From positions 2,159 through 66,158 of the forward strand of contig JBPOJE010000073.1 in NCBI GenBank assembly GCA_052033935.1: a stretch of 64,000 nt of DNA, given 5' to 3'. The notes below the pieces were generated by a model that was not told the DNA's origin, searched no databases, and saw only the letters and a list, made by a program, of their open reading frames with translations. The translations under genes were made by a program, and so were the position numbers. Below, piece by piece: positions 16,279 to 59,716 of this stretch. Each line of letters opens with the position of its first letter. Position 1 is the stretch's first letter. Origin of the DNA: Armatimonadota bacterium (GTDB taxonomy: Bacteria > Armatimonadota > UBA5829 > DSUL01).

Positions 16279-17948
16279 GTGTATTGTTTTCAGTGCTAGG
16301 AGACAGCCAAGAACGAGGGCTGCAGCATCAGGGGAATATGCGGCAAGGCACCGGAGACCGCCGATCTTCAGTATCTGCTTATCTACGTGTGCAAGGGGAT
16401 ATCTGTTTTTGCCAGCAGGCTCGGCCAGTTCGGCCCGGTTGACAAGAAGTACGGGCGCGCGGTCTATCAGGGCCTATTCGTAACCGTCACAAACGTCGCG
16501 TGGGACAATGGCACCATTGTGGAGCACATCCGCGAGGCGCTCGCCGTGCGAGACGCGATCAAGGCGGAGTTTCTGGCGGCCTACAAGGAAAAGAACGGCA
16601 GCGGCTTCGCCGAAGCGCTGCCCGATTGCGCCGCCTGGAGCCCGGCCGATGACGCCGAAATCCTCGCAAAGGCCGGATCCGGCGAAGTGCGCATCACCGC
16701 TCAGGAGAACGAGGACGTCCGGTCGCTGCGCGATCTGCTGACTATCGGCTGCAAGGGGATCGCCGCCTACGCCTGGCACGCCGCCGTGCTGGGACACGAG
16801 AAGGCCGAGATCTACGCCTTCATCATGGAAGCCCTCGATTCGACGACGAAGGACCTCTCGGTTGACGAGATGGTGAGGCTGGTGATGAAGGCCGGCGAGA
16901 TGTCCGTCGCGGCCCTGGCGCTCTTGAACGAGGCGAACACCTCCGCCTACGGCAGCCCCGAGATCACCGAAGTGAACCTCGGAGTTCGGAACAATCCGGG
17001 TATCCTCATCCCCGGGCACGATCTGAAGGACATGGAAGAGCTGCTGAAGCAGACCGAGGGCATGGGCGTGGACGTTTACACGCACGGCGAGATGCTTCCG
17101 GCGAGCTACTACCCGGCGTTCAAGAAGTACGGGCACTTCGTGGGCAACTACGGCGGGTCGTGGTGGCATCAGACACGGGATTTCGAGGCGTTCAACGGGC
17201 CGATTCTGATGACGGCCAACTGCCTGGTTCCGCTCAAGCTCGAGAACACCTATCTCGACCGGCTGTTCACCACCGGCGTGGTCAGCTACCCGGGCGCCAC
17301 CCACGTTCCGGATAGGGCGGATGGCGGCGCGAAGGACTTCTCGAAGCTGATCGAGCGGGCGAAGGACTGCAAGCCGCCCACCGGGCTGGAGACAGGCAAG
17401 CTCGTGGGAGGGTTCGCGCACAATCAGGTGCTGGCCCTCGCGGACAAGGTTGTGGATGCCGTCAAGTCAGGCTCCATCAAGCGCTTCGTTGTGATGGCTG
17501 GCTGCGACGGCAGGAAGAAGGAGCGGCAGTACTTCACGGATGTCGCCGCCGCTCTGCCGAAGGACACCAGATCCTTACGGCCGGCTGCGCGAAGTACCGC
17601 TACAACAAGCTGGAACTCGGCGACATCGGCGGCATTCCGCGCGTGTTGGACGCCGGCCAGTGCAACGACTCGTACTCGCTGGTGGTGATCGCCCTCAAGC
17701 TGAAGGAAGTCTTCGGGCTCGAGGACATCAACGATCTGCCGATCTCATACAACATCGCCTGGTACGAGCAGAATGCCGTGGCCGTTCTACTGGCGCTGCT
17801 CTATTTGGGTGTCAAGGGAATCCGGCTGGGCCCGACCCTGCCCGCGTTCCTTTCGCCGAACGTGGCGAAGGTACTTGTGGGGAAATTCGACATCAAGCCG
17901 ATCGGAATGGTCGGGGACGATGTCGCGGCGATGATGGCCGGGAAGTAG
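16279..17948 (+). pseudogene. hcp: hybrid-cluster protein / hydroxylamine reductase (Hcp), disrupted by an in-frame TAG at codon 7 and a 1-nt deletion frameshift near 17567
   Basis: GTG 16279 (GGGAAAGGG RBS) gives VYCFQC*ETAKNEGCSIRGICGKAPETADLQYLL, the Hcp N-terminal Cys cluster, with TAG at 16297-16299 where Hcp has Glu. The frame continues into track ORF 16387..17688. At ...ALPKDT|RSLR the frame slips, and the C-terminus [36 protein letters not shown]...[16 protein letters not shown] continues in the +2 frame to 17948 (track ORF 17643..17948). Confidence 0.8.
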
Positions 17949-17985
17949 CACCAGACCCGGCGCTGTTGTTGTCCGGCCGGGTTCG

Positions 17986-19495
17986 TCAGTGGGAGTCCTG
18001 AAAAACGGAGTAAGACTCGCCGGGGCCGACAGGTGCCAGCCTGATGTCCTTCTCGCAGACCCAGCCCGCGCCTTCGGCAACCTCCACCTTCCACCAATGT
18101 CCGCCCAGCCCCAGGATGCCGTTCAGCCCGTGGGCGGATACTCTGCCAGCGGAACCTGCCTCGGCTGTTGCTGCCGCCGCATAGTTCATGCCGGGTCCAA
18201 GCCGCAGTTCCACAGCGTTCTTGAGCGCGATTCGCACGCTTTGCGCGAGTCGGTGGCTGCGGACCTCCGGAAGCAGATTGACCATGACGCTGCCGTTCGC
18301 GACCGGGCGCTCCGGGCCGTCCGAAGTCTTGTTGACCACCTTCCCGTTGATCCACAGGGTCGAGGAGCCGCCGCCGTCCTGGTTCGTGCCCCATGTGGCC
18401 TTTAGCTCGTCCCGGCAGAACGCGCCAAGCTCGGCCATGTTCATCCCCACGCTCACGCCCGGGTCGCGCCCGTCGCAGACGATGAAGAACACGTAGTGGG
18501 CGTTGTATGCGATGGCGGTGCGGGGGGTGCGGATGAGCAGGCCCTTGTTGTCCGTCTCCACAATCCGGCCGTCGCGCAGAAAGGTGAAGTTGCCGCCCAC
18601 GCACGAGTATGACCGCCGCCAGTCGAGCGGACGCCGCGTTTCGCAGTCCTTCTCCCAAGTGCTCAGAACCTGCGAAAACGTGACTCTGCCTCCGGGCGAG
18701 GCTGCTTTCGCGAGCGCATCGGCGTCGCGTCCCTCGGCCGAGAGCACCACGCAGTCGAACGGGATGGGTGTGGAGCCTTTGCCGCTGCGGACATCGAGCA
18801 CGGTTCCCCGCGCGGCTCTAGGCCGGGCACCGTGAGGCCGACCGGGCCGTTCACCTGCACGAGCACTTCCACGCCGTTGCCCGAAGTCATCGTCGTGGCG
18901 TCGAAGTGGGGAGTGTAGAGCACGAGTTCGTTTGTCTGGCGGGGTTCGTTGACGCGGCTGATCCCCAGTTCCGGGCCGCCGTCACACCGAACCGCGCGGC
19001 CTGCTCCTCGCGCTTGTGGCTCACGCAGTCGCCGATGAACGTCTCCCTGTCCAGCGTCCACACGAATCCGCTCATGCCGCCATACTCGAAGAACCGGTGC
19101 GCGTACCACCCGCCAAGAATCTGCCCGCCCGTCTGAACGCCGGTGCGTGGGTTGAAGAAGTCGCCGTTGATGGCGGCGACGGCCTTGTTTCGCCGCTTCC
19201 AGCGTCCGCCCCAGGTATTGATCGCGCCGTCGTAGCGCTTCACCTGGTCGCGCACGGTCTCGCGCGCGCCGGACACCGTGCCGCCCGCCACCATGCTGTC
19301 GATCGTGCAGTTCGGATTCGCCCGGTCCATCCGCACGACGAACACGTTGTTCGGGTGCGGCAGGGTGAACTTCTGATACTCGAAGCCGTCGCCTACCGGC
19401 GTCCACGCAAGGGCGCGGCCGTCGGCGATGGCCAGCGCGGCGAAGAGCCCGAGCGCCCACCTCAGACGAGACGAAGGAGACTTCCAGCCATTCAT
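17986..19495 (-). pseudogene. phosphodiester glycosidase (DUF2233 / NAGPA-like) family secreted protein, interrupted by two frameshifts as assembled
   Basis: N-terminal ORF 18887..19495 has a signal peptide plus AINGDFF...GMSGFVWTLDRE. The middle segment (...CDGGPELGISRVNEPRQTNELVLYTPHFDATTMTSGNGVEVLVQVNGP) is in a second frame. The C-terminal ORF 17986..18801 (YNAHYVFFIVCDGR...NQDGGGSSTLWINGKVVN) is in a third. Shifts are near 18990 and near 18805 (at a GGGG run). Confidence 0.65.
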
Positions 19496-19505
19496 CCTGC
19501 GCGGG

Positions 19506-20513
19506 TCACGGTTCGGAAATACCCTCCTGCTCGGGAATGAGCGGCCCTGGGCTTTCGCCCTGCCAGTACGAGCCGGTTGTGACGATGTTCAAGCCGCCGT
19601 CGCCGCGCCGCAAGGCAACAAGGCAGCTCACGCCCCCGCTGCATAGCTCGGGTAGCTCCAAGCCTTCCTCTCCCAGCACGATGAGCGCTGTCGAGTACGC
19701 ATCGCAGAACGTGGCGTCCCGCGCGGCAACGGCCACCAGCACGGCACCCTGGGCGGGCCGGCCGGTTCGCGGGTCAATAATGTGGCCCACAACCTCGCCG
19801 TCTCGCATAACGGTCTTCCCGGCGGTGCACGAGACGCCCAGGCTGCTGTCGTAAAGCCAGGTCTCGGCGAGCACCCGGCCGGGTTCGTGCGGGTCCGGGT
19901 CCGCGACCGCCACGCGCCAGCCCCGGCTGTCGCTGTGAGTCCCGATTGCCGTCACGCTGCTCGTTCCGCCGTGAATAAGGGCCGACCGGACACCGCACTG
20001 CCTGAGAGCGGCCGCCGCGTTGTCGAGGGCTACCCCCTTGCCGACAGCCCCGAAGTCGAGTTCCACGCCGGGCCTGTCGAACGAGACCGTCCAGTCGTCC
20101 CCCCCGAGCTTGATGTGATGCGTCCCGGTGAGCGTGCGCGCCTCCTCAATCTCGGCGTCGGTACCCGGCTCGCGTTCGCCCGTCAGCCCCCAGGCGCGCA
20201 GAAGCGGGCGAACGGTGATGTCGAACGCGCCACCCGTGGCCATGCACATGGCGACAATGCGCTCCAAACGCAGCAGAGCCTCGTGACCGACCTTCACAGG
20301 ACGCAGTCCCGCGTGCTCGTTGATGTGGTAGGTCAGGCTGGAGGGGAGGTAGGCGCTGAACATCTCCTCGGCGCGCGATATTTCGTCCAACGCTTCTTCC
20401 CCGGCCGCGCGCAGGCGGTGGGGTTCAGCGCCGGTGAGTGCAATCTCAAAGCGCGTCGCCATCGCGTGCCGCGAAACCATAACCAGACTGCGGTCGTCCA
20501 TAGCTCGCATCAT
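19506..20513 (-). CDS. FAD:protein FMN transferase (ApbE family), no signal peptide
   Basis: 335 aa. DFGAVGKGVALD (DxGxxxKG motif) and overall ApbE-like sequence are present. The N-terminus is not signal-like, so it is probably cytoplasmic. Confidence 0.8.
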   Translation of the reverse strand: MMRAMDDRSLVMVSRHAMATRFEIALTGAEPHRLRAAGEEALDEISRAEEMFSAYLPSSLTYHINEHAGLRPVKVGHEALLRLERIVAMCMATGGAFDITVRPLLRAWGLTGEREPGTDAEIEEARTLTGTHHIKLGGDDWTVSFDRPGVELDFGAVGKGVALDNAAAALRQCGVRSALIHGGTSSVTAIGTHSDSRGWRVAVADPDPHEPGRVLAETWLYDSSLGVSCTAGKTVMRDGEVVGHIIDPRTGRPAQGAVLVAVAARDATFCDAYSTALIVLGEEGLELPELCSGGVSCLVALRRGDGGLNIVTTGSYWQGESPGPLIPEQEGISEP

Positions 20514-20604
20514 ACCAGAATGGCGCGGCGGGGCGCGAAAAAAGCCGGGGACACGGCCACGCCGTGCCCCCGGCTCCTGTCAGATATCTCTTTTCTGCCT
20601 GCGG

Positions 20605-21891: not shown

Positions 21892-21967
21892 TACCTATTA
21901 CCTTCCACAACACATGTCATTACTGCCGTCCGCCGGCGCTGCCGGCCAAACGTCACTACCTATGTAA

Positions 21968-23227: not shown

Positions 23228-23422
23228 ATGTGCCTCCAGTTGTTATCTGCCGCACCCCCCGTGAACGCGAGGCACCGCGCCCCGCGCAACTATTATACTT
23301 CGCGGAACGAGGAGTTCATCCCTGCTGCAATGCGTGACCGATTGGCCCGCCGGCGCTCGCCGCCGCACTTAAGACCGCCGGCGAGCGCAAAACGGGACGC
23401 CGCCTTCGGTCCGCCTTGCCCG

Positions 23423-24583: not shown

Positions 24584-24661
24584 CTTTGCTTCTCCTCAGA
24601 GTACGTTATTTGACGAATCTGAACTTCTCTTGCGGGGGCGCGTTGCCCTGCCCCGCGCCCG

Positions 24662-28780: not shown

Positions 28781-29611
28781 TTAGGCTTTCAGGCCGGTGA
28801 GGGTGATCCCTTCGATAAACTGCTTCTGGGCGAGGAGAAACAGAACAAGAATCGGCAGCGCGGCCATCACCGCACCCGCCATGAGCACCGGCCAGTTCGC
28901 GTCGCCATAGAACCCCTGCAGCGACTGCAGCCCGATGGGGATGGTCTTCATCGTGGGGCGGTTGATGACGATAAGCGGCCAGATAAAGCTGTTCCAGCTT
29001 CCGAGAAACGCGATCAGCCCGAACGCCGTCAGCGCCGGACGTGAGAGCGGCAGCATGATCCGCAGATAGATAGTCCAGTGACTCGCGCCATCAATATGCG
29101 CGGCCTCCTCCAGCTCCTTCGGGATGGTCATGAAGAACTGTCTTAGCAGGAAGCAGCCATAGGCGCTCGCGACGAAGGGCACGATGAGCGCCGCGAACGA
29201 GTCAATCCAGCGCAACTTCACCATCAGAATGAACAGCGGAATCATCGTCACCTGCGTGGGCACCATCATGGTGGCGAGATAGGCGATAAAGAGCGCGTCG
29301 CGGCCCCGGAAGTTGAGGCGCGAGAACGCGTACGCGGCGAACGTGGATGTGACGAGCTGCGCCAGGGTCACGACGACCGCCACGATGAGGCTGTTGAGAA
29401 AGAAGTTGGCGAAGGGCACGGTCTTCCACGCCTGCAGGTAGTTGTTCCAGTGAGCGCCGCTCGGCAGAAGCTGCTCGAGCGGCAGGAAGAACTCCGTCGT
29501 GCTGCGCAGGCTCCCGATGATCATCCACACAAACGGCACGATCATGCTCAGGCTGAGAAGCCCGAGGACGATGTAAGTGCACAGGTTGCCGAAGCGCTCG
29601 CGGTTCTTCAT
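28781..29611 (-). CDS. carbohydrate ABC transporter permease (MalG-like)
   Basis: MKNRERFGNLCTYIVLGLLSLSMIVPFVWMII...EAAHIDGASHWTIYLRIMLP contains the EAA loop. Start 29611 shares 1 nt with the upstream stop. The track ORF is extended artefactually to 29878. Confidence 0.8.
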   Translation of the reverse strand: MKNRERFGNLCTYIVLGLLSLSMIVPFVWMIIGSLRSTTEFFLPLEQLLPSGAHWNNYLQAWKTVPFANFFLNSLIVAVVVTLAQLVTSTFAAYAFSRLNFRGRDALFIAYLATMMVPTQVTMIPLFILMVKLRWIDSFAALIVPFVASAYGCFLLRQFFMTIPKELEEAAHIDGASHWTIYLRIMLPLSRPALTAFGLIAFLGSWNSFIWPLIVINRPTMKTIPIGLQSLQGFYGDANWPVLMAGAVMAALPILVLFLLAQKQFIEGITLTGLKA

Positions 29612-41486: not shown

Positions 41487-42565
41487 CTACGGCGTGTCCA
41501 CAATCCGCCCGTCAACGGCCCAGACGCCGCCGTTGCACTGGGAGAAGGCTGCGATGGTGCGCTCGTCCTTCACGAACAGCGAGTTCCACCAGCCGCCTTC
41601 GTCCTCCGGCACCTCGAACGGGACGGAGCGCCCTTCGAAATTGCGCGCGTTCTCGTCGCCGACGTAAACAACGATCTGCGGTTGCTTGCGCCCCACGCTG
41701 GACTGGAACGAGAGCACCGTCTCGCCGCCTGGCATCTGGCGGATGCACGGCGCCCCGCCCCATTCACTGCCGGGCGGCTTCCGGACCGCCCTCCACCGCC
41801 TCGGGCTTGCTCCGCTTGCCGCAAGCGGCTTCCAGTTGTCCTCCATGTTCGAATGGACGATCACCGGGTGGAACATGACCGAGTAACCGTTGTCCTCGAT
41901 GGCGACGACGATCCCCTTGCCGCCCCGCAGTATCAGGGGCGAGGGCATCCCGTCGTGGTGGTTCGGCCGGAAACTGATCGCCTTCGCACTGCTCCATGTG
42001 CGCCCGTTGTCAAACGACCGCACGAGCGAAATCTCCTGCTCGCTCGTGTTTCGGTAAGGGTTCTCGTTGGCGAAAAAGAGCTGAATCTCCCCGAAGGAAG
42101 CTGGATGGCCGCTGGCTCCCAGCATCCGTTGTCCCACACCGTGTCGGCCTCATACGCCAGCGAGTGCGGCTTCCATGTGCGGCCGCCATCTTCGCTTACG
42201 CTGAGGTGGATTGAGAACCGGTGCACGCCGTCCTTCGGGCGCTCGTTGTACATCAGCAGCGCCCAGCCGTTTGCGAGCTGCAGCAGTTCGGGGTTCGACG
42301 CGGTCCCGGATGGAACGCCGGCCACTTCCGCGAAGCCGTCCCACGTCTTGCCGTCGTCCGCGCTGCGCTTCACGCACACTTTGCCGCGCAGCGCGAAGCT
42401 GGCGAGGATATCGCCTCCTTTGAGCCGGATCATCCGCGGGTATCCGCCCCCGCGTTGGACTTCGACGAGCGTGCTCCTGTCCCAGACGATGGTCTTACCG
42501 GAGAAGGCTGCCTGGGCGGCCACTGTCAGAAGAGCGGCCATGAGCGGAAGCGCAAGGATCTTCAT
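41487..42565 (-). CDS. BNR/Asp-box repeat exo-alpha-sialidase-like glycosyl hydrolase, frameshifted as assembled
   Basis: Start MKILALPLMAALLTVAAQA (signal). Asp-boxes KRSADDGKTW, SVSEDGGRTW, RSFDNGRTW are present. The N-terminal part is in track ORF 41933..42724 and the C-terminal part in 41487..42137. The junction ...AIQLPSG|EIQLFFANE is at a GGGG run near 42095. Confidence 0.65.
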
Positions 42566-42623
42566 GCTAATTGCTTCGGCACAGCGGTGCCGGTCTCCTT
42601 GACAGGACGAGGGGTGAATCTTC

Positions 42624-43585
42624 ATGCTTGGCGCAACGATGAACACCGAGAGGATACACATGCCGCGACTGTGCCTGTTCGCCTTTGCTCTCGTCGTGCT
42701 GGCGGCCGCCGCCCCGGCCTTCACTGAGCCAGCCTACCCGGAGTCGCCGGAGGGCGTGACGCTGATTGCCGATGTGGCTTATCTCGCGCAGGGCCGTGAG
42801 GAGAAGTTGGACATCTACCTGCCTGTGGGGCGCAAGGCCGGCCAGCACTCGCCCGCCATGGTGATGATTCACGGAGGCGGTTGGGCGAGGGGCGACAAGA
42901 CGGGCGCGAGGGAATACGAGACGGGTGCGATTCTGGCGCGGGCGGGCTATGTGGCCGTCAGCATCAACTACCAGATGGCTCCCGGAAGGCGCTGGCCAAC
43001 GAACCTGCTCGATTGCAAGAACGCGGTGCGGTTCCTGCGCGTCAACGCGGAATATTACAGCGTGGACCGGCGCGCATCGGTGTGATGGGCGGTTCGGCGG
43101 GCGGGCATCTGGCGCTGATGACCGCCTACACTACCGGTGCGCCGGGACTCGAACCAGCAAGCCCCTACCCCGGCGTGTCGAGCCGGGTGAGCTGCGTCCT
43201 TGATCTTTACGGCCCCACCAGCCTGCTGACGCGGGAGAAGACCGACGCGAAGGGCAACCTGACGGGGGTCCCTGTGAATACCCTTGGCCTCTTCAGCCCC
43301 ACCCGCCAGCAGGACCCGGGGTTGTGGAGGTTGGCGTCGCCGGTCAGCTACGTGCGGAAGAACTCCCCGCCCACGCTGATTCTGCACGGTCTGGCGGATA
43401 CCACGGTGGACCGCGGTCAGGCCGAAGCGCTTGCGGCGAAGTTGGCGGAGCACGGCGTGGAGCACAGGCTGGTGCTGCTTGAGGGCGTCGGTCACTCGTT
43501 CTACCTGAAGACGTGGAAGAACAAGCCGCTGCCTTTGGACGTCGAGGGCATTGCTCTGGAGTTCTTGGCAAGGCATCTGAAGTGA
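42624..43585 (+). CDS. secreted alpha/beta-hydrolase fold-3 esterase/lipase (HGGG + GxSxG), frameshifted as assembled
   Basis: MPRLCLFAFALVVLAAAAPAFT is the signal. MIHGGGWARGDK is the oxyanion HGGG motif. After ...NAEYYSVD the frame shifts (CC run near 43068) into IGVMGGSAGGHLA (nucleophile) ...LILHGLADTTV (track ORFs 42624..43085 and 42881..43585). Confidence 0.65.
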
Positions 43586-45437: not shown

Positions 45438-45460
45438 TCTCTGGATGCCGGATCGAGTCC
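45438..45460. repeat. REP-like palindromic repeat, second locus
   Basis: CCGGATCGAGTCCGGCATGACGT is identical over 23 nt to 41408-41430. It sits 24 nt after the stop of the membrane-protein gene. Confidence 0.6.
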
Positions 45461-45569
45461 GGCATGACGTGGGGGCGGAGGCGGAGGTTATTCGGCCCGG
45501 CGTGCTGAAGAATGCTCCGGGAGCCAGGTGACAGCACCCGGGCAGATCTAGAAATGGCGGAATAGGCAA

Positions 45570-48123: not shown

Positions 48124-49869
48124 ATGAATAGTTTCCCATTGCTGAATGTCTGCGTCGCGGCATGCGCCGCGGCGGCGCTGTCCGCCGCATCGGCGGCGGA
48201 GCCCGTCTGGAACATCCGGCAGATTCCGATCGAACGGGTGTCGGTGGTAGCGCATCGCGGAGCCGGCTTTCTGGCACCCGAGAACACCATGAGCGCGCTC
48301 GAGCTTTCGTGGAGCATGGGCTGTATCCCCGAGGTGGACGTGCGCACTACGAAAGACGGCCACGTGATGATGTTCCACGACGGCAACTTCGCGCGGATAC
48401 TTCCGAACGCTTCCGAGGAGATGAAAAAGAAGCGCCTAGAAGACCTGACGTATGACGAGGCGAAAAAGCTGGACATCGGGGCGTTCCGCGGCCCCGAGCA
48501 TGCCGGGCAGCGTATCGTGAGCCTGGCGGATATCTGCGCCGCGCTAAAGAAGGACCCGAAGCGGCGGGTGTATCTGGACGTCAAGAACGTGGACTTCTCG
48601 CAGATGGCGCGTGAGACGGAAGGCGTGCACGAGCAGGTGATCCTGGCGACCGGCTCGGAGGAGGACTGCACGCGCTGGAAGAAAGTGGCCCCGCGCAGCG
48701 ACACCTTCCTGTGGGTGGGCACCTGGGACGACAAGGACGACACGAACGTCGAGAAGCGGTTCGAGAAGCTGCGCGCGGCGGGCTTCGCGAACATCAACCG
48801 GTTGCAGGTGCACTGCCATTTCACGGGTGGAGGTGGCGGCACGATGATCCCGAGCGATGCGTTCATCCGCCGCGCCGCCGATGAGGTTCGCGGTCACGGC
48901 ATCGAGTTCCAGACGATGCCCTGGAACATCCCGGAGAGCCCCGAGGCGTACGTGAGGCTGATGGACCTCGGCAGCGCCGGGTTTGGCACCGACCGGCCGG
49001 ATGTGGCCGTGAAGGCGATCCGCGACTACTACCGCAACGGGCCGAAGAACTGGAACGTGCGCGACCACATCCCGCTCAAGAGCGTCACCGTGCAGGCGCA
49101 TCGGGGCGCGGGCGATCTGGCGCCGGAGGGCTCGCAGGAGGCGTTCGAGCTGGGGTGGAGCCTCGGCTGCATTCCCGAGGCCGACCTGCGGGTGACGAAG
49201 GACGGCGTCATCGTCTCGTTCCACGACAACAACTTCGCGCGCATCGTGCCGGACGCTTCCGAGTATCTCAAGAAGAAGGGTGTCGCCGACCTCACTTTCG
49301 AGGAAGCGCGAAAGCTGGACGTCGGCAGCTTCCGGAACAAGAAGTTCGCCGGGCAGAAAATGCTGAGCCTTGCCGAGATGGTCGCGACGCTCAAGGCGCA
49401 CCCGAAGCGTTCGCTCTACATTGACATCAAGAAGGTGGACTTCGCTCAGCTCGCCAGGGAGACGGTGGAAGTGCATCCTCAGTTGATTCTCGCGAGCACG
49501 CGTTACGAGGAGATCAAACAGTGGCGGAAGCTCGCGCCGAGGTCGAGGACTCTGCACTGGATGGGCGGCCCGCAGGAGGAACTGGCGAAACGGCTGGTGG
49601 CCCTTCGGGCAGAGAACTTCGCCTTCATTGACCAGCTTCAGATTCACGTCAACACGAGCAAGGACGGCGTCTTTTCTCCGGACGAGGAGTTCCTGCGGAG
49701 CGCGGGAAACGAACTTCGCGCCCATGGTATTCTGTTCCAGATCCTGCCGTGGGGCCGGAAGGACGCGAAAACGTATCACCGGCTGATGGACCTGGGGTGC
49801 GCCAGCTTCGCGACCGATTACCCGGACACGGTGATGGAAGCGATCCGCGACTACTACAAGCGAGGCTGA
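48124..49869 (+). CDS. secreted protein with two tandem glycerophosphodiester-phosphodiesterase (GDPD)-like domains
   Basis: Signal MNSFPLLNVCVAACAAAALSAASA. Domain 1 is VVAHRGAGFLAPENT...EVDVRTTKDGHVMMFHD. Domain 2 is VQAHRGAGDLAPEGS...EADLRVTKDGVIVSFHD. Both carry the HRG...PEN...E.D...HD GDPD motifs, about 290 aa each. Confidence 0.75.
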   Translation: MNSFPLLNVCVAACAAAALSAASAAEPVWNIRQIPIERVSVVAHRGAGFLAPENTMSALELSWSMGCIPEVDVRTTKDGHVMMFHDGNFARILPNASEEMKKKRLEDLTYDEAKKLDIGAFRGPEHAGQRIVSLADICAALKKDPKRRVYLDVKNVDFSQMARETEGVHEQVILATGSEEDCTRWKKVAPRSDTFLWVGTWDDKDDTNVEKRFEKLRAAGFANINRLQVHCHFTGGGGGTMIPSDAFIRRAADEVRGHGIEFQTMPWNIPESPEAYVRLMDLGSAGFGTDRPDVAVKAIRDYYRNGPKNWNVRDHIPLKSVTVQAHRGAGDLAPEGSQEAFELGWSLGCIPEADLRVTKDGVIVSFHDNNFARIVPDASEYLKKKGVADLTFEEARKLDVGSFRNKKFAGQKMLSLAEMVATLKAHPKRSLYIDIKKVDFAQLARETVEVHPQLILASTRYEEIKQWRKLAPRSRTLHWMGGPQEELAKRLVALRAENFAFIDQLQIHVNTSKDGVFSPDEEFLRSAGNELRAHGILFQILPWGRKDAKTYHRLMDLGCASFATDYPDTVMEAIRDYYKRG

Positions 49870-50090
49870 GCGGGCAGGCCGCCCGTCTCAGGCTTCACCG
49901 TCACTGCCCGCGATTTCAGGCGCCACAAGCTCGTCGTCCGGCCCGCGCCAGGCGCGCACGCCATGCGGCGAACCAGGGCGAACAGGTTCACCACGCTGAA
50001 CACCACGAACCAGGTGGTATTTCAGGCGGCAAGCGCGAGCTCGATCAGCACACGGCGGAACCGTCCAGCCGGGGTGTTCGAAGATTGTCG

Positions 50091-50489
50091 TCAGGATTCC
50101 CCGGCCGGATGCTTCCGGCAATCAGCGCACAGCCCACCCATCTCAACGCGCGCCGTCTCAATCGAGAACCCGCTGCCCGCCTCCACCTCTCGCTCTACCC
50201 GCGCCCACGCCTCCGGACGCATCTCGGCTACCTTGCCGCAACCTGTGCAGACGATGTGCAGATGCATCTTGTCGGGCAGGGGCTCGTAGAAGTGCCCGTC
50301 GTGCTTGTAGTGGAGCAGGTCGAGCTCGTCAAGCAGGCCGAGGTCCTGCAGTCTGCGGATGGTGCGGTACACGGTTGTCTTGTCAATGCCGGGCACGCGG
50401 CGCCTTGCCTCGGCAAGCAGCCTGCGTGCGTCCAGGTGTTCGGCCGACGAGTCGAGGATGTCAACGATGGCGGCGCGCTGACGAGTCAT
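50091..50489 (-). CDS. fur: Fur family transcriptional regulator
   Basis: MTRQRAAIVDILDSSAEHLDARRL...HLHIVCTGCGKVAEM...CADCRKH combines a winged helix with an HxH...CxxC metal site. The track start 50618 is probably too long. Confidence 0.8.
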   Translation of the reverse strand: MTRQRAAIVDILDSSAEHLDARRLLAEARRRVPGIDKTTVYRTIRRLQDLGLLDELDLLHYKHDGHFYEPLPDKMHLHIVCTGCGKVAEMRPEAWARVEREVEAGSGFSIETARVEMGGLCADCRKHPAGES

Positions 50490-50636
50490 GCGCACCCCTC
50501 TGGCGCGGCAGGCTTCGCGAAGCGAACCGCCCCCGCCCGCGCGGCGATCTTCGTGTCCATGCTCTGATACGTGATGTGTCACGGAACACATAGTGATTTC
50601 CCGCTGCCCCCCTGTCAAGCACGGCGGCGCAGAGGG

Positions 50637-50662
50637 TTTGCGGTCGCCGGGCGCGAAGGTAT
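50637..50662 (+). promoter_or_regulatory. putative sigma70-type promoter for the 50717 gene (divergent from fur)
   Basis: TTGCGG - 16 nt - TATAAT at 50637-50662, about 55 nt upstream of GTG 50717. Confidence 0.3.
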
Positions 50663-50716
50663 AATGGAGTCGAGGCGGGCGCGACAGCCCGCCGGAGCAT
50701 CAACTATGAAAAGGCG

Positions 50717-52111: not shown

Positions 52112-52221
52112 AACAGTGCTGTCATTGCGAGGCGGCTCCGGCAGCCGTGGTAATCTGGGGCGAGGGGGGTTGCTTCGCTCCAGAGACCTCGCGATGACGG
52201 ATTGAATGAGGACTAACAAAC

Positions 52222-53070: not shown

Positions 53071-53137
53071 AGCTCGGCAATCGGGCGTTGGACTTCCCCC
53101 GAAAAAGTGGACACCCTAAGGATGAGTTATCGAAAGG

Positions 53138-53407
53138 GTGTCTGAGAGGATGATGAAGTTCAGCGAGGAGTTCCGGGACGAGTCGGTGCGGCTGGTTCTG
53201 GAGAGCGAGAGGACGGTGGCGGAGGTAGCGCGGGATACTGGAATCAGCGTGTGGACCTTGCGGGGTCGGATCCAGAAGAGGTGCGAGGCCGTCAGGTCGT
53301 CTTTGTCCCAGAGGCGTGAGACCCTTGAGCAGGAGATTCGGTGCCTTCGCCGGGAAGTGTTAGTTCTGCGTCAGGAGCGTGAGATCCTAAAAAAAGCGGC
53401 GGCGTAA
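53138..53407 (+). CDS. IS3 family transposase OrfA (HTH + leucine zipper)
   Basis: MSERMMKFSEEFRDESVRLVLESERTVAEVARDTGISVWTLRGRIQK...LRREVLVLRQEREILKKAAA ends in the A-run frameshift site. Confidence 0.8.
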   Translation: MSERMMKFSEEFRDESVRLVLESERTVAEVARDTGISVWTLRGRIQKRCEAVRSSLSQRRETLEQEIRCLRREVLVLRQEREILKKAAA

Positions 53408-54287
53408 TTCGCGAAGGAGCAGCTGTGAGGTATGCCTTTGTTGCTGTACACAGGAAGGAGTTCCCCCTGAGTCTTCTGTGCCGGGTTCTTGGGGTATCCA
53501 GGAGCGGCTACTTTGCGTGGCGCGGCCGTCCTGAGAGCCGCCGGGAGCGTGAGAACCGGATTCTTCTTGAGCGGATCAAGGCGACCCATAGGTCGGGAAG
53601 GAAGATGTATGGTAGCCCTCGGATTCACCGGAAGCTCGTGTCGGAGGGGGTGCTGTGCGGCCGTGTCCGGGTGGAGCGCTTGATGCGCGTGAATGGGATC
53701 CGTGCGCAACGGAAGCGGCGGTTCGTGGTGACGACGGACTCGGGGCACGGCCTGCCGGTTTCTGAGAACATTCTTGGCCGTGAGTTCGCGGTGGGCGAGC
53801 CGAACCGTGTATGGGCATCGGACATCACTTATGTTCCGACGGATGAGGGCCGGCTGTATCTGGCGGGCGTTCTGGACCTGGGGATGAAGGGAGTAGTATG
53901 GGCGAGAGTCTGGACAGGACACTGGCGATGGATGCCTTGACGATGGCGTATCATCGTCGTAGGCCGGGCGAGGGACTGCTCCATCATTCGGATCGGGGTA
54001 GTCAGTATGCGAACCGGGACTACTAGGCTCTGCTGAGCGCGTATGGGATGCGCTCAAGTATGAGCCGGAAGGGGGACTGCTGGGACAATGCACCGATGGA
54101 GAGCTTCTTCGCGACACTGAAGAAAGAGCTGATCCACGGGCGAAGGTTCCGAACCCGGGAACAGGCCCGGCGAGAGATCTTCGAATACATCGAGGTGTTC
54201 TACAACCGGGAGCGGCTGCACTCCAGCTTGGGGTATGTCTCGCCCGCGGACTACGAACGGCAGCTTGCCGTCAAAGAGGCGGCTTAG
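53389..54287 (+). pseudogene. IS3 family transposase OrfB (DDE integrase core), disrupted by a frameshift (~53905) and an in-frame TAG (54024-54026)
   Basis: The -1 frame from the A7G site gives ...RVWASDITYVPTDEGRLYLAGVLDLGMKGVV. After a shift it continues ...[68 protein letters not shown]...[19 protein letters not shown] (track ORFs 53425..53940 and 54048..54287). Confidence 0.75.
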
Positions 54288-54341
54288 GGTGTCCACGAAA
54301 ACATGGGAGGTCCAATTGTGGTCCGAGAGGAGACCTTCAGG

Positions 54342-55256
54342 ATGAAATGTCTATCAGTCCGCGTGGTGCTTGTTCTTGTGTGGTTGCTTTCGGCTTGCTC
54401 CATAGCCTCAGCAGCCACGGTTCCTGATTGGTTGGTGAGGCCGGGAACCATCGGGCACGCTCTGTCCCTTAGCCACGCTCTGTCCCTTAGCGATGGATCC
54501 CAAGTATGCCTTCATGTGGTGGTCGTGGACAAGATCCACTTCAGGCAGAAGCCGGTCTATTTCACAGTCCGCGAATGCTTCGACTGGAAGTCGTGCCTGA
54601 TCGTTTACGGACAACCTTCGCCCCTGCTACGGCACGGGCAGACAATAGACATCGAGGGAACCCTGACAACGCTCCCGAACGGGCATAGGGCGATTGTAAG
54701 GCCGAAAGTATCAGGTTATGTGGACAAAGCGGGTAAGCTCCTCTACCACGGACCGCTCATAAAGTGGCCTTGGTCTCGGACGGAATGGGAGTGGAAGACC
54801 GACCTCACCGTTGTGGAAGCAGTTGACCAGGCTTCCTATACGCTTTCGGATACCGGGACTCCTCCTGATGAGCCGATTACTAACTCCACTTCCGGCCCGG
54901 TCTTCTGTGCGACAATCGCCGATGCGCGAGCACAGTATAGCCCAACCGAGCGGGTGCTTGTGGAGCTTCAGTGCAGGCCGCTTGAGAATCCGGTTTCAGG
55001 CTCTTTCACGTTGAAAGAGGACGGTGGCGCGGATAGCATTACCATCTACTACACGGGTTCCGTAGCGGCTTCCGACAGGATTAACAAGCTCGTCGGTGCC
55101 ATACAGAGAGACGCTGGAACCAACTATTGGATTGAGGTGGACTCCGGCCCAACTGGCAATCGCAAGATCCTATTGGAAGCGTACATACCGCTACAAGCGG
55201 AACCATCGCATGGGCAAAGACATTTGCGGACACCACTACATTGCCTGCGCCACTGA
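54342..55256 (+). CDS. hypothetical secreted protein (lower-GC island)
   Basis: Signal MKCLSVRVVLVLVWLLSACSIASA. It contains an 18-bp perfect tandem duplication (HALSLSHALSLS). It is possibly the N-terminal part of one larger gene continuing in 55241..57121. Confidence 0.5.
   Translation: MKCLSVRVVLVLVWLLSACSIASAATVPDWLVRPGTIGHALSLSHALSLSDGSQVCLHVVVVDKIHFRQKPVYFTVRECFDWKSCLIVYGQPSPLLRHGQTIDIEGTLTTLPNGHRAIVRPKVSGYVDKAGKLLYHGPLIKWPWSRTEWEWKTDLTVVEAVDQASYTLSDTGTPPDEPITNSTSGPVFCATIADARAQYSPTERVLVELQCRPLENPVSGSFTLKEDGGADSITIYYTGSVAASDRINKLVGAIQRDAGTNYWIEVDSGPTGNRKILLEAYIPLQAEPSHGQRHLRTPLHCLRH
54456..54491 (+). repeat. perfect 18-bp tandem duplication (2 copies) inside coding sequence
   Basis: CACGCTCTGTCCCTTAGC at 54456-54473 is repeated exactly at 54474-54491. 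Confidence 0.9.
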
Positions 55257-57121
55257 GCGGAAAAGTAGTATCGCGCACGTTCCCTTGGCTCGGTTACTTC
55301 TACATTCTGGGGATGGCATCGTTCGTGGCCACGGGTGACACTGTCGATGTGGAAGGGGAGTTGGCGACAGACGATGGGGAGCGCGTAGTCGACGCCTCGT
55401 CCACTACGCTTGTTGATATTGCGTCCGTCGCGTCGGTGGGCTTGAATGGCCGTTCGTTGGCAGGTGGGAATTTCAATGTGTTCACCCCCGGAGCCCACGG
55501 TGCGTATGGCCTGAACAATGTTGGTTTGCTTGTTGGTGTTTGGGGCAGAGTGACCGCTGTCGGCTCCGACTATTTCTACCTTGATGACGGCTCTAATTGC
55601 GACGATGGTTCCGGGTCTGGCGGGGTGAGAGTTGTCAACGTGTCTGGTTATATGCCAGGTGCCGATGACTACGTTGCCGTAACAGGCGTCTCAGGTCTTG
55701 CCACGTATGACACTGATCTTGCCAGAACTGTCCGGTTAGCCCGCACCGTCGATCTTTCCGGTATCTGCCCGACTCTTCCGCCGGCTAACTTGACCGTTGC
55801 TCCAACGGGCAGCGGGAAGCTCACTCTATACTGGAGCGGTGTGTGCGGAGCGACAGGCTATAACGTCTATCGAGGCACGATTTCCGGTGGTGAAAACTAC
55901 TATACGCCTGTCAATGGTGGAACTCCGGTAACCACAGAGAGCTACTCCGGTAGTGGTGTCTATACCTATACGGATACCGCGCTGACCGACGGAGTCGAGT
56001 ATTTCTACACGGTAAAGGCTGTGGGTGGGTGTGGCGAGAGTCAAGCGTCGGAAGAGGACAGCTGCATTCCTGATCCAAACGGTGCGCCGTGGGATACTGG
56101 TGATGTTGCAGCAATCTTGGCCTCCATCAGGAATTCGTTCCCCGGGGTTTCAATACCATACGGCTGCATCCGGGCACGAGGGCCGGACGGAAGAGATTAT
56201 CTGGACGGGATTAGCAGTCCAATCATACCTGACGTCACAATCGATCCCACGACGAGAGATGTAGTCTTTTCCGACGGAACCAGAATTGCAGCACCGAATG
56301 ATATTGCCGACATTGACTCATACACGCTTGGGTCAATGCAGATCCTTACAACGATCGAACCGAGAATAAAGAACGCCCAATCCGGGCCATTCAGAAAGGT
56401 CTACACTCACCATAACTATCGTGGAGTAAAAGGTCGTTTCCGGCTTCCTGACTCGAGTGTCGGCATCAGAGTCACGCCTTACACGTACCCTTCCACCGGA
56501 AAGAGCACCAAGGACATACCCTATGTGTATCTTGGCGGGCTTGGCAATCGCTACACCGCCGTTGATGCGGGGCTGTACTGGGGGCCAACGGCTAACGACC
56601 CGCAAAGCCGTTGGAGAATGTTTGGCAAGATCAAGAACTCCAAGAGAGACGAGTGGATTAACACGCCTCCAAATGGGATCTTTGACGATAATCAAGATGT
56701 CAACGCTGAGTACATAGCCTCAAGCATAGTTAATGGCCGGGTGCTGCTGAGAATAACACCAGTTGGCGGAGGTCAGACTGGGGTTATCACGATAGACATA
56801 TCGGATTTCGCAAAGACGGGGCAAGGTGTCCACCTGAAGCGTGTCCATTCGATTGCCCAAAACAATCTCATTGGAACAGACAAGGCCAAGGGATACCGAG
56901 AAACGGGGTCATATTTCCAGTCCAGTGCCTGGTTTGATGGCCAGGTAATGGATCAGAATGGAACATACAGCAACTGGGGCACCTCGCAAACACCCTACTC
57001 GACATATCATGGCAGGTTTCCTAACCTCTCCAGCATCGTCAGTTTCCAACTGCAGTTTCCACAGAACCTCTATCCGTCGAAATGTTTCTCAGGTGATCTC
57101 TATGTGCACATCACCCTGTGA
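55241..57121 (+). CDS. secreted fibronectin-type-III domain protein with recurrent FYLDDGS...GVRV module (lower-GC island)
   Basis: ANLTVAPTGSGKLTLYWSGVCGATGYNVYRGTISGG...YTDTALTDGVEYFYTVKAV is an FN3 domain. GLNNVGLLVGVWGRVTAVGSDYFYLDDGSNCDDGSGSGGVRV is the shared module. The track start TTG 55241 has no signal peptide. The frame is open from 55136 and overlaps the upstream ORF end, so a frameshift fusion is possible. Confidence 0.5.
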   Translation: MPAPLSGKVVSRTFPWLGYFYILGMASFVATGDTVDVEGELATDDGERVVDASSTTLVDIASVASVGLNGRSLAGGNFNVFTPGAHGAYGLNNVGLLVGVWGRVTAVGSDYFYLDDGSNCDDGSGSGGVRVVNVSGYMPGADDYVAVTGVSGLATYDTDLARTVRLARTVDLSGICPTLPPANLTVAPTGSGKLTLYWSGVCGATGYNVYRGTISGGENYYTPVNGGTPVTTESYSGSGVYTYTDTALTDGVEYFYTVKAVGGCGESQASEEDSCIPDPNGAPWDTGDVAAILASIRNSFPGVSIPYGCIRARGPDGRDYLDGISSPIIPDVTIDPTTRDVVFSDGTRIAAPNDIADIDSYTLGSMQILTTIEPRIKNAQSGPFRKVYTHHNYRGVKGRFRLPDSSVGIRVTPYTYPSTGKSTKDIPYVYLGGLGNRYTAVDAGLYWGPTANDPQSRWRMFGKIKNSKRDEWINTPPNGIFDDNQDVNAEYIASSIVNGRVLLRITPVGGGQTGVITIDISDFAKTGQGVHLKRVHSIAQNNLIGTDKAKGYRETGSYFQSSAWFDGQVMDQNGTYSNWGTSQTPYSTYHGRFPNLSSIVSFQLQFPQNLYPSKCFSGDLYVHITL

Positions 57122-57137
57122 TAGGATTGCTGCATCC

Positions 57138-58262
57138 ATGATACTGCTTTCTGCTCTTGCTGCTGCCAGCGTTGCGCACGCCCTGGATTTCCCATCATCC
57201 GCCGTCGTATACTCGACGGCGGCGACGGCCAGAAAACCTTCGCGACTCATAGTCTGCACATACCCGGGGGGGGTGTCAACAGAGGTCAAGATGAAGCAGG
57301 CTGAAGGAGCGCGAATGGGAGATGACATCCGAGCCCCCGTGTTCTCTCCCAACGGCAAAACCGTGTTAGTCACTGCAAACCGCACAAGCGCAGATAGGAA
57401 AACAACCGTGAGCCCCGATTCTACACCGGGTCTTGACCTATGGACCGTTGATTTACAGAGATCGACGGCTGCGCCGCTGACTCACGATGCTTGCGGATAC
57501 GAAAACTACTCCTGGTCGCCAGACGGGAATTACATCTGCTCGATCTCTTGCAACGGCGTTCAGGACGAGCACCCGATGGCTGACACTGGCACAACCGCAT
57601 TCCTCTACCTGTGGAACGCGCACAAACCAGTTAAGAAGCTGATCGGCCTCGAGGCTGTCGATTATGGATGGTCAAGTGACAGCAGGAGAGTATATCACAC
57701 TGGTAGCGCATATAGCGTCAAATTGCCTCATGACAGGAGAGCAAGCTTTATATACGCGGATATCCAACAGGGCAGATCTTTCCTCTACTTCAGTTCAGAT
57801 AATGACTTGTATTCGGGCACATGGTCTTCCAACGGCAAGCTGTTGGCCTACTGCGAGTCTAGCGAGACGGGCTATGGCATCAGCATTCTGCGCAAGGGAG
57901 AGAAGAATCCACGTCGATTCCTGAACACCGAGTTGCCTTTGCATCCGTGGTGGTCGCCTGACGGCAGGAAAGTTGCCTTCTTGGAGAGTGTTCCACATCA
58001 AGAAGGAGGCGAATACCTCAACAAGCTGCGAATCCTGGACGTAGTATCAGGAAAGACTACGGACCTGTGGTCGGTACGCGGCGAAGCAACCATTCTCGGG
58101 TGGACGAGGGACAGCCAATGGGTCGTGGCCAGTCGCTTCCAGTCCCTTGCACCGGACTGGCTAGGGGAAGTTGTTGCATGCTGTATCGGCAGACCGGAAT
58201 TGACTGTGACGTTGTGCTCGCCTGTGGAGAGAGTCACTGCCTTTGACTGGATCCAGCGATAG
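57138..58262 (+). CDS. TolB-like WD40/PD40 beta-propeller repeat protein, secreted (lower-GC island)
   Basis: Signal MILLSALAAASVAHA. PD40 repeats are FSPNGKTV, WSPDGNYI, WSSDSRRVY, WSSNGKLLAY, WSPDGRKVAF. An alternative start is ATG 57102. Confidence 0.65.
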   Translation: MILLSALAAASVAHALDFPSSAVVYSTAATARKPSRLIVCTYPGGVSTEVKMKQAEGARMGDDIRAPVFSPNGKTVLVTANRTSADRKTTVSPDSTPGLDLWTVDLQRSTAAPLTHDACGYENYSWSPDGNYICSISCNGVQDEHPMADTGTTAFLYLWNAHKPVKKLIGLEAVDYGWSSDSRRVYHTGSAYSVKLPHDRRASFIYADIQQGRSFLYFSSDNDLYSGTWSSNGKLLAYCESSETGYGISILRKGEKNPRRFLNTELPLHPWWSPDGRKVAFLESVPHQEGGEYLNKLRILDVVSGKTTDLWSVRGEATILGWTRDSQWVVASRFQSLAPDWLGEVVACCIGRPELTVTLCSPVERVTAFDWIQR

Positions 58263-58602
58263 CAGGGCGGTGTGCGCAATTTTGCTGCCAAGCAGGAGCT
58301 TATGGAGACACTTGCCTACCGTGGCGCAAACCCGTGGATTTTGCGCTGCTCGTTCCACAGCATCGGCAACTGCTTCGTCAGCATCGTCAGCGACAGCCCA
58401 CTCGGCTCCTCGCCCATCAGGATCGACTCAACAATGTCCGGCGCAAGAAACGTGAGCCGCAGCAACCGGGCTGCAAACTGGACGGAACCCCTTCAATCCG
58501 GCCGGGCGCGACCGCACGGCTGCCCGGGCGGCGAAAACTTCTCGCTCTCCAGCGCCGTATTATACGCATGTAGGGTAGAATAGAGTGTGCTTCAATCCAC
58601 GT

Positions 58603-58970
58603 GGGGGCGATAGGTCTCGACAGGGAGCTTTGAAGCGCGGTCTGCGAGTCGAGGCGCCGCTGGCCTCGTAAAAAGCGGCAAAAAACATAAACGCGAACAC
58701 TAACAACTATAGCTACGCGCTCGCTGCCTAACTAAAGGGCAGCCGTCCGGCCCTCCTTAGCTGGAGAGGAGGTCACCGGGCGTTGATAAATCCGGCTTGC
58801 TCCGCCTAGGCGTCCACTGGGGGCGGAGGACTCAAAAAGAGGACTGGCTAGAAGGCGCGAGCCCCGCCCGCGGGGATTGCTTTCGGCGAGATAACAAACG
58901 CGGGAAACACTCGTAGAGGGCCGTGCGTTCGGTTTTCTGGACCCGGGTTCGAATCCCGGCGCCTCCACCA
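58603..58970 (+). ncRNA. ssrA: tmRNA (transfer-messenger RNA)
   Basis: 5' GGGGGCG pairs with the 3' CGCCUCC-ACCA acceptor stem. The T-arm GGGTTCGAATCCCGG precedes the CCA end. The internal reading frame GCGAACACTAACAACTATAGCTACGCGCTCGCTGCCTAA encodes the tag peptide ANTNNYSYALAA*. Confidence 0.9.
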
Positions 58971-59219
58971 TTACGGTGAGCACGAGCAACGCCCAGGCGC
59001 CCAGCGCGCTGGAGGCAAGTGAGTATGCACCTTCGCAAGTCGGAAGTTCAGCGCTGGCTGGCGGGCTAGCGAGCAGCCGAAAGAGTAATCCAGCAGGAAC
59101 GTACGCGGTCTCTGATCAGCCGCACCACCGAAGACGCTTGGCAGGCATATCTTGACCTGTCGGAAATCTCGCCGCTCGCGCGCCCGGTTGCCGGTCAGCC
59201 TTCTTATCTGCTGAAGGCG

Positions 59220-59716
59220 ATGCGCCAAGCACGAAACGCCCGCGCCGTGAGCATCCTCGATGCCGCCGAAGTGACCTCATACCTGGACGAGCAACGGGTG
59301 CCGTATGCCGTCATCGGAGGTATGGCCGTGCAGTACTGGGGCGAGGCACGACAGACCGGCGACGTGGATATCGTGGTGCTGGTCCGCCCTGATGAGACCG
59401 CCAACTTCCTCGAAACCGCTGTCCAGAGGTTCAGGCCTCGCATTGATGACGCTGTCGGGCGAGCCGTCTCTATAGACCTTCCGGGAGGACGAGCCATCCG
59501 CATCATCAGCGCAGAAGACCTCATAATCCACAAGTGCATTGCCGGCCGCGAGACATTGAGGATATCGAACGGGTTTTGGTGCGCCAGAGGCTCTCAGTCG
59601 ATCACGACTATATCGCGCAGTGGTTCCAGGGGATTGTAGAGGATCGTGACGTCACGGGGGTGTACAACAGTGCGCTTCAGCAGGCAACGTCGGCGCTGAC
59701 AGGTGAAGACACCTGA
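59220..59716 (+). pseudogene. minimal nucleotidyltransferase (MNT / AbiEii-like) family protein, frameshifted
   Basis: YAVIGGMAVQYWGEARQTGDVDIVV is the hG[GS]...D.D nucleotidyltransferase motif. The frame breaks at ...LIIHKCIAGRE| and continues in another frame as PRDIEDIERVLVRQRLSVDHDYIAQWF (track ORFs 59220..59639 and 59534..59716). Confidence 0.55.

Follow-up and report, generated by a model that had tools for sequence, protein, structure and literature searches.

The window analysed here is a 64 kb stretch of a contig from an uncultured Armatimonadota bacterium, and gene decay was assessed within these 64 kb. Eight accessory genes are knocked out in about 43 kb of it: hcp, a NAGPA glycosidase gene, a BNR sialidase-like gene, a BD-FAE esterase gene, an IS3 transposase gene, the gene for an fn3 surface protein, an 81-aa gene and the adjoining nucleotidyltransferase (NTase) gene (Table 1). 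The original prediction had named seven genes and attributed their broken frames to 1-nt indels. All seven are disrupted, but alignments to a sister species and to other homologues show that the lesions are not all 1-nt indels at homopolymers. Beyond that list lies an eighth broken gene, the 81-aa gene upstream of the NTase. Three in-frame TAG codons, a 20-nt deletion in the 81-aa gene, deletions of 3, 99 and 9 nt in the NTase and the absence of whole genes had also been missed.

Table 1. Disrupted genes, remnants and landmarks in the window.
Feature	Coordinates	Strand	Lesion or basis
GFO_IDH_MocA oxidoreductase remnant, 174 nt	14729..14902	+	blastn, 86% over 174 nt
hcp (hybrid-cluster protein / hydroxylamine reductase) pseudogene	16279..17948	+	TAG at codon 7 and 1-nt deletion
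NAGPA/DUF2233 phosphodiester glycosidase pseudogene	17986..19495	-	two +2-nt frameshifts relative to sister species
BNR_2 sialidase-like pseudogene	41487..42625	-	1-nt deletion at C-run 42089-42092
BD-FAE / alpha-beta hydrolase fold-3 esterase pseudogene	42624..43585	+	1-nt deletion, CCC to CC, 43067-43068
Degenerate IS3-family element	53088..54315	+	imperfect inverted repeats 53088-53120 and 54283-54315
Large secreted fn3-domain protein gene, split	54318..57121	+	1-nt deletion, 55148-55152 (CCC/AA context)
tmRNA gene (landmark)	58603..58970	+	ARAGORN; Rfam RF00023, 183.5 bits
81-aa protein pseudogene, upstream of NTase	59025..59246	+	TAG and 20-nt deletion
DUF2204/DUF6036 nucleotidyltransferase (NTase) pseudogene	59247..59716	+	alignment to sister 194-aa gene

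The sister species is represented by GCA_040769165.1 and many ENA/Logan contigs, with around 87-93% nucleotide identity to the window across aligned blocks. All six genes that can be compared (hcp, NAGPA, BNR, esterase, 81-aa and NTase) are intact in the sister species and lie in the same order.

The premature TAG of hcp (16297-16299) precedes the N-terminal Cys motif. Codon 7 encodes Q in the sister species and in 77 of 77 homologues among the matches listed; Q7 and the motif KDT[VI]ILT are conserved among the listed Hcp homologues. The 1-nt deletion falls between 17569 and 17570, where the sister species reads ACAGTGATC and the window ACCA-GATC in the DNA alignment. It is outside any homopolymer, and an AA run to which the junction had tentatively been assigned, near 17567, is absent. 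The Pfam Prismane profile is split into segments 52-385 and 387-512, and the sister hcp is an intact gene of 556 aa. A scan of genome contigs with the reconstructed Hcp gave a best match of 74% identity among the matches listed, with neither this species nor the sister species among them.

The two shifts proposed earlier for the NAGPA gene are borne out by three reading frames, which intact relatives of 504-511 aa match in turn by tblastn; the sister gene encodes 504 aa. The 2-nt insertions lie at about 18983-18986 (GTGT) and about 18816-18819 (AGAG on the gene strand), and neither is inside the GGGG run at 18806-18809 where a junction (about 18805) had been placed. Removal of one dinucleotide per site restores FGDGGPEL and PGLAARGTV and brings the length to that of the sister gene. 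The two shifts do not cancel.

The BNR gene is missing one nucleotide at the C-run 42089-42092, close to its proposed junction (GGGG, about 42095). The gene strand reads GGGG where the sister species has GGGCG, and from this comparison the deletion itself may have created the run. The sister gene is intact (379 aa), tblastn matches fall in two frames, and the reconstructed protein matches BNR_2 at 9.9e-15. For the esterase, the junction at CC/CCC (about 43068) had been placed correctly. The sister esterase (313 aa) has CCC at the deletion site, and in the window the BD-FAE profile is split into segments 1-89 and 88-215.

In the IS3-family element, which has the domain order HTH_Tnp_1 followed by HTH_21/rve, orfA ends at 53407 over an A7 slippery site (53389-53395) and orfB (53425-54287) lies in the -1 frame. 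This arrangement resembles the -1 frameshift of the IS3 family, in which an A6G/A7 slippery site gives an orfA-orfB fusion, and the shift from orfA to orfB is a normal programmed one and not a lesion. The programmed shift explains one frame change only. About 10 nt are also missing near 53897, and an in-frame TAG stands at 54024-54026; both lesions fall inside the rve domain of the reconstructed protein (profile 3-102 of 102), so this copy is dead. The closest intact orfB homologues, which are non-syntenic, have 290 aa and 83% identity and read GVVGWSMSESLD...RDYQTLL.

The fn3-domain gene sits in a low-GC island (52-57% GC). That ORFs 54303 and 55241 might be a single gene had been suspected, and homologues of 900-973 aa, all of them non-syntenic, cover 94-99% of the fused protein. 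The break is at 55148-55152 and not, as supposed, at the overlap of the two ORFs: tblastn gives a frame switch at 55148-55151 with no residues lost, which also replaced a candidate junction at about 55200.

Alignment of the 81-aa gene to the sister locus (L126) shows TAG at 59067-59069 in place of CAG, and the 20-nt deletion between 59221 and 59222 has GCGCCA repeats on its flanks. The frame of the NTase is broken by a 4-nt deletion at 59540/59541, which reduces (GCCG)3 to (GCCG)2. Three further deletions in this gene are in frame, namely 3 nt at about 59261, 99 nt at 59447/59448 between 11-nt direct repeats, and 9 nt at about 59612. The nearby tmRNA gene has the IS3 element and the low-GC island upstream and the decayed 81-aa/NTase pair downstream.

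About eleven genes of the sister species in these regions are absent from the window. The GFO_IDH_MocA gene has left a remnant: tblastn with the 355-aa sister protein matches residues 58-118 only, and by comparison with the sister gene order the remainder of the gene and an adjacent cupin gene have been deleted. It is for this gene alone that loss in the window, rather than gain in the sister species, is shown.

The nine frame-breaking indels comprise four deletions of 1 nt (hcp, BNR, esterase and the fn3 island gene), two insertions of 2 nt (both in NAGPA) and deletions of 4 nt (NTase), 10 nt (IS3 orfB) and 20 nt (81-aa gene). An earlier reading of every lesion as a 1-nt deletion, based on the same frame correction at each junction, was overturned by the alignments giving +2, +2, -4 and -10 nt. 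In-frame TAG codons occur in hcp, IS3 orfB and the 81-aa gene, two of them demonstrated as CAG-to-TAG changes. Several genes carry separate lesions: a nonsense codon and a frameshift in each of these three, two frameshifts in NAGPA and four deletions in the NTase. The lesions interrupt the profiles Prismane, BD-FAE, rve and NAGPA. Additional frameshifts suspected from GC3 frame arithmetic at about 26.6-27.2, 29.6-29.9 and 36.2-36.4 kb, together with an in-frame stop at 28781, were checked by gene calls on Logan contigs and comparison with the sister species, and are merely adjacent or overlapping separate genes.

The window sequence, lesions included, recurs in Logan contigs at 100.000% identity with 0 gaps in at least 14 runs from five accession series (SRR22590154-172, nine runs; SRR31933955; SRR34217571; ERR4982096/102/103; ERR14964778), the platform and independence of which we infer, and some of which may be source data of the deposited contig. 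These contigs tile positions 3646-53117 and 54266-63917, with one substitution in one contig, and span every lesion except those within the repeated IS3. Identity is 100% across both hcp lesions (L028, L001 and L003) and for NAGPA (L001 and L003), BNR (L024, L025 and L027), the esterase (four contigs), the 81-aa gene (five contigs) and the fn3 gene (L131, a contig seen in 5 samples), and the exact frameshifted product of the NTase is found in five runs, also at 100% identity. The frameshifted esterase tail, ...YYSVDRRASV, is common to P0033-P0036, with three haplotypes that differ slightly elsewhere, one of them from an ENA assembly. The IS3 interior (53118-54265) is outside this coverage, and its orfB lesions are read from the deposited contig and the homologues. 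Scanning metagenome contigs for the IS3 junction, with 1 or 2 nt allowed, gave no match, and a text search of the literature for the run accessions found no papers. Looking up the 317-aa ORF 54303-55256 by exact match also gave nothing, since the gene callers had chosen another start.

Selection was estimated by the Nei-Gojobori method. Relative to the sister species, the six disrupted genes have a median dN/dS of 0.205, against 0.134 in 22 intact genes (p=0.003, one-sided Mann-Whitney test). The value is raised in five of the six, the NTase giving 0.112, and the effect is modest; hence either the genes were inactivated recently, compared with the date of the split between the two species, or they are simply faster-evolving.

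The lesions are real and reproducible, the sister species has intact orthologues, and dN/dS is raised in the disrupted genes. We consider it highly probable (about 0.93) that the lesions are true inherited inactivating mutations, and the genes pseudogenes, in one uncultured Armatimonadota lineage present in several metagenome series. Recurrence, intact sister orthologues, multiple lesions per gene, the absence of further sister genes and dN/dS all favour the pseudogenisation that the original prediction had held out as its alternative. Its preferred view was that long-read or flow-based homopolymer miscalls had inserted false 1-nt indels into functional genes. Such errors, in long-read, 454 or Ion Torrent assemblies, fragment ORFs and are a known annotation problem, and the window resembles these assemblies in having adjacent same-strand ORF fragments with one shared homologue. 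Three or four lesions are also in or near short G/C runs (C-run 42089-92, CC 43067-68, CCC 55148-50, and a GGGG run 7-10 nt from one NAGPA lesion), and for eight of the nine indels the frame shift has the same direction. However, unlike such errors the lesions are reproduced exactly in many assemblies, the esterase tail also in the ENA assembly, and are mostly not single-nucleotide changes in long runs: five of the nine measure +2, +2, -4, -10 and -20 nt, and the 1-nt hcp deletion lies outside a homopolymer. They are accompanied by three nonsense substitutions and by the in-frame deletions of 3, 9 and 99 nt. Furthermore, the window has 27 homopolymers of at least 6 nt, around half in coding sequence, and none coincides with a frameshift; C7 runs inside intact genes stay in frame. 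The reading as homopolymer error is thus refuted by recurrence, indel lengths, nonsense changes and the in-frame long runs, and with dN/dS raised in the disrupted genes an artefact is very improbable.

Real lesions could still be bypassed, with the genes working through programmed -1 frameshifting, transcriptional slippage or readthrough or reassignment of TAG. Downstream of each of the same eight indels the gene continues in the -1 frame, where -1 frameshifting would restore it, every one of the three premature stops is TAG, and the IS3 orfA/orfB junction has a canonical A7 slippery site. Yet inspection of the hcp, NAGPA, BNR, esterase, fn3 and NTase junctions found no X XXY YYZ slippery heptamer at any lesion. 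Reassignment of TAG was ruled out by stop-codon usage: TAG ends 14 of 34 intact window genes checked, and the in-frame TAGs are therefore real stops. Several genes would require two or three separate recoding events, the NAGPA shifts do not compensate for one another, the NTase also lacks 33 codons, and the deletion bias of spontaneous indels suffices for the excess of -1-class shifts. Given also the raised dN/dS, recoding is barely credible. It is unlikely, if less so, that the lesions are real but unfixed, segregating as loss-of-function variants alongside intact alleles of the same species. In several runs the Logan contigs end at shared branch points of the graph (17268-17297 and 45442-45470), a hint that related sequence co-occurs, and sampling per locus was limited to a handful of contigs. 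Against this, the lesions are in every contig recovered for this species, each full-length NAGPA protein of the 90% cluster is of the sister type (around 90% identical to the window), and the esterase frameshift is common to three haplotypes. Multiple lesions per gene and raised dN/dS also imply age.

Inherited inactivation of this sort is ordinary lineage-specific gene decay. Pseudogenes of this kind, products of relaxed selection or drift, are described for Mycobacterium leprae, Yersinia pestis, Sodalis glossinidius and Salmonella Typhi. As in those bacteria, orthologues in a close relative are intact; nonsense changes, small indels, direct-repeat deletions and an IS insertion occur together; there are several lesions per gene and a deletional bias; and losses fall mainly on accessory genes (catabolic, transport, stress and toxin-antitoxin-like). 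Unlike those host-restricted pathogens and symbionts, the organism here is an uncultured, metagenome-derived Armatimonadota bacterium, examined over 64 kb. The cause is probably relaxed selection or drift in a low-diversity population. A mixture of spontaneous mutations would account for the lesions: in-frame TAG codons (the two CAG-to-TAG changes among them), 1-nt deletions, dinucleotide duplications and, by slippage between short direct repeats, deletions of 3 to 99 nt. Entire genes still present in the sister species would have been taken out by larger deletions, and the inactivated genes would then drift under relaxed selection. On sequence grounds the disrupted genes are predicted to yield no functional product.

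About one sixth of the genes of the window are disrupted, in addition to those absent relative to the sister species. The functions lost are carbohydrate uptake and degradation, nitrosative-stress defence and toxin-antitoxin-like modules. These figures hint that the lineage is shedding accessory genes faster than its sister species, which is not surprising in itself. We speculate, and hold it to be doubtful, that this is early reductive genome evolution in a lineage near-clonal across the metagenome series, with a possible shift towards life as a dependent or highly specialised member of anaerobic bioreactor consortia.

In practice, pseudogene calls on this contig should stand, and should be neither removed by polishing nor merged by frameshift-tolerant annotation. 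Metabolic reconstruction of this genome should give no credit for Hcp, the NAGPA glycosidase, the BNR sialidase-like enzyme or the BD-FAE esterase. Artefacts and pseudogenes can be told apart without raw reads, by exact-match look-ups in independent public assemblies together with comparison to a sister species.

Every gene that the original prediction listed as frameshifted in the window is indeed disrupted, as seen from split profiles, multi-frame alignments and full-length homologues, and an eighth, encoding 81 aa, lies directly upstream of the NTase gene. With a probability of about 0.93, we attribute these disruptions to lineage-specific pseudogenisation through ordinary spontaneous mutations. 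Pseudogenisation as a phenomenon is already well known. The window (63% GC, genes with a GC3 of ~0.8) makes up most of a deposited metagenome-assembled contig of 66,172 nt. It carries ~47 genes as well as a tmRNA (58603-58970), and the closest named relatives of its isocitrate dehydrogenase all belong to Armatimonadota (76-83% identity). Lesions were aligned at base level to a related species, here called the sister (GCA_040769165.1 with many ENA and Logan contigs), whose aligned blocks show ~87-93% nucleotide identity and whose sequences were found through 90% protein clusters and exact look-ups.

The Prismane profile is covered at 52-385 by one hcp fragment and at 387-512 by the other. At 17569/17570 one nucleotide is lost (window ACCA-GATC; sister ACAGTGATC), outside any run, and the homopolymer suspected at this junction is absent; codon 7 is TAG (16297-99), a position occupied by Q in the sister and in all of 77 homologues. 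Intact relatives of NAGPA/DUF2233 (504-511 aa) align in three separate frames, hence two shifts. Each site has gained 2 nt relative to the sister, in AGAG and GTGT contexts (gene strand), and removal of one dinucleotide per site gives peptides of sister length with one substitution each. The GGGG (18806-09) to which one shift had been assigned instead codes for a conserved in-frame A-R-G-T, the lesion being 7-10 nt upstream.

The BNR_2 gene occupies two frames when aligned to the 379-aa sister orthologue. One nucleotide is missing at the C-run 42089-92, as proposed, although the deletion itself may have made this run, judging from the sister's GGGCG. The esterase fragments match positions 1-89 and 88-215 of the BD-FAE profile, and the junction was correctly placed at a CC/CCC near 43068, since CCC in the sister is CC at 43067-68. 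This is the only clean short-homopolymer deletion; the general claim of 1-nt indels at homopolymers mostly fails. Reconstructed IS3 orfB has a single continuous rve domain spanning the break. Here the window has GVV/(SS)MGESLD, against GVVGWSMSESLD in the most similar intact homologues (290 aa, 83% identity), which implies the loss of about 10 nt; in addition, a TAG at 54024-26 stands at a Q position of these homologues. The shift from orfA to orfB over A7 (53389-95) is the normal programmed -1 frameshift of the IS3 family. ORFs 54303 and 55241, when fused into one fn3 gene, are covered 94-99% by homologues of 900-973 aa; the frame switches at 55148-55151, with 1 nt missing in CCCAA (55148-52).

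In the 81-aa gene, CAG of the sister has become TAG (59067-69) and 20 nt are deleted between GCGCCA repeats. The NTase gene falls into two frames against the 194-aa sister orthologue through loss of 4 nt, (GCCG)3 becoming (GCCG)2. Three further deletions keep the frame: one of 3 nt, one of 99 nt lying between 11-nt direct repeats, and one of 9 nt. The tmRNA and the 81-aa/NTase module (58566-59458, compared with contigs L125 and L126) share 95-96% identity with the sister, although the module is decayed in the window; the genome around them reaches ~87-93%. The segment may thus have a later common origin or have been exchanged.

Exact-product look-ups led to Logan contigs, each assembled from one run (SRR22590154/156/158/160/161/163/171/172, SRR31933955, SRR34217571, ERR4982096/102/103 and ERR14964778), and to L131, a contig present in five samples. 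Together these tile window positions 3646-53117 and 54266-63917 at 100.000% identity with zero gaps, and therefore all lesions outside the IS3 interior are reproduced; the sole difference from the Logan contigs is one substitution in one contig. We infer sequencing platform and independence of the runs from how many accessions there are, how widely they are spread, and the construction of the contigs from exact k-mers. Sequencing error, the explanation originally favoured, is thus wrong, as these lesions recur in run-by-run assemblies. A homopolymer-error process is also rejected because long runs, its expected first targets, keep frame: about half of the 27 homopolymers of at least 6 nt lie inside genes with frame kept, among them C7 in two intact genes and G6 within NAGPA, away from its lesions. 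Furthermore, three haplotypes that differ elsewhere have the frameshifted N-terminal fragment of the esterase, out-of-frame tail DRRASV included. One of them has A22T and another is an ENA contig with different upstream sequence, so that the frameshift predates their divergence. TAG is the commonest true terminator in the window (14 of 34 genes), hence the in-frame TAGs are real stops.

True pseudogenisation, originally the alternative, is borne out: the lesions are real and, outside the IS3 interior, reproduced, their polarity is shown, and the sister orthologues of six of the genes are full-length. Median dN/dS against the sister is 0.134 for 22 intact genes and 0.205 for six disrupted genes (one-sided Mann-Whitney p=0.003), a modest rise that would fit inactivation part-way down the window lineage's branch. 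The mutations comprise C-to-T transitions making TAG, loss of single bases, duplication of dinucleotides, deletions by strand slippage between short repeats, and larger deletions; they would have been kept either because the genes were dispensable or because the population was small and near-clonal. Relaxed selection or drift would then be the cause, with probable loss of gene function. Syntenic blocks also lack whole sister genes (see table), and the functions disrupted or absent are accessory, namely carbohydrate uptake and hydrolysis, nitrosative-stress defence and toxin-antitoxin-like modules. This bears on annotation of the disrupted genes and, from the 64 kb looked at, possibly signals genome reduction in the lineage.

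Disrupted genes of the window and sister genes absent from it
Feature	Position (strand)	State	Basis
hcp	16279-17948 (+)	disrupted	
NAGPA/DUF2233	17986-19495 (-)	disrupted	
BNR_2	41487-42625 (-)	disrupted	
BD-FAE esterase	42624-43585 (+)	disrupted	
IS3	53088-54315 (+)	disrupted	
fn3 gene	54318-57121 (+)	disrupted	
81-aa gene	59025-59246 (+)	disrupted	
NTase	59247-59716 (+)	disrupted	
MFS transporter (1.4-1.5 kb in sister)	12131-12519	absent; short intergenic stretch in place	syntenic block comparison
GFO oxidoreductase and adjoining cupin gene	14729-14902	absent; 174-nt GFO remnant	syntenic block comparison
SSF symporter and alpha-amylase (~4 kb in sister)	49869-50091	absent; short intergenic stretch	syntenic block comparison
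Two NTase/HEPN pairs		absent; dead IS3 and low-GC island in place	syntenic block comparison
227-aa gene		absent	syntenic block comparison

A weak 98-nt similarity (78%) is left at the SSF/alpha-amylase site (49952-50040). Between PIG-L and the tmRNA (53088-58583), the dead IS3 is followed by a low-GC island (52-57%). The island codes for an fn3 surface protein, whose homologues are found mostly in Armatimonadota, and further contains a PD40 beta-propeller gene and a 103-aa ORF. The sister has two NTase/HEPN toxin-antitoxin pairs at this place; the arrangement looks like island replacement adjoining the tmRNA.

The lineage shows near-zero diversity (one substitution in >150 kb of aligned contig, at least 14 runs and five accession series), in contrast to the many protein variants of the sister, and may be one clone common to related reactors or inocula. 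Contigs of different runs start or end alike at 17268-17297, 40151, 45442-45470, 53117 and 54266, with ~30-nt (k-1) overlaps. These are de Bruijn graph branch points present across runs; those at 53117 and 54266 are due to IS3, and the remaining ones may be caused by a relative that co-occurs or by short repeats.

The premature stops are all TAG at Gln positions (16297-99, 54024-26, 59067-69), with CAG in the sister where available, and the beta-helix gene ends 5 codons short at TAG 62254-56 (...FSRG*KTAK), where the sister has Trp (...FSREWKTAK). Mutation pressure from GC to AT, acting on a GC-rich genome, would fit this pattern. Of the nine frame-breaking indels, eight (-1, +2, +2, -1, -1, -10, -1 and -4, at 17569, 18816, 18983, 42089, 43067, 53897, 55148 and 59540, respectively) shift everything downstream into the -1 frame, the 20-nt deletion (59221) alone acting in the opposite direction, an excess that probably stems from deletion bias.
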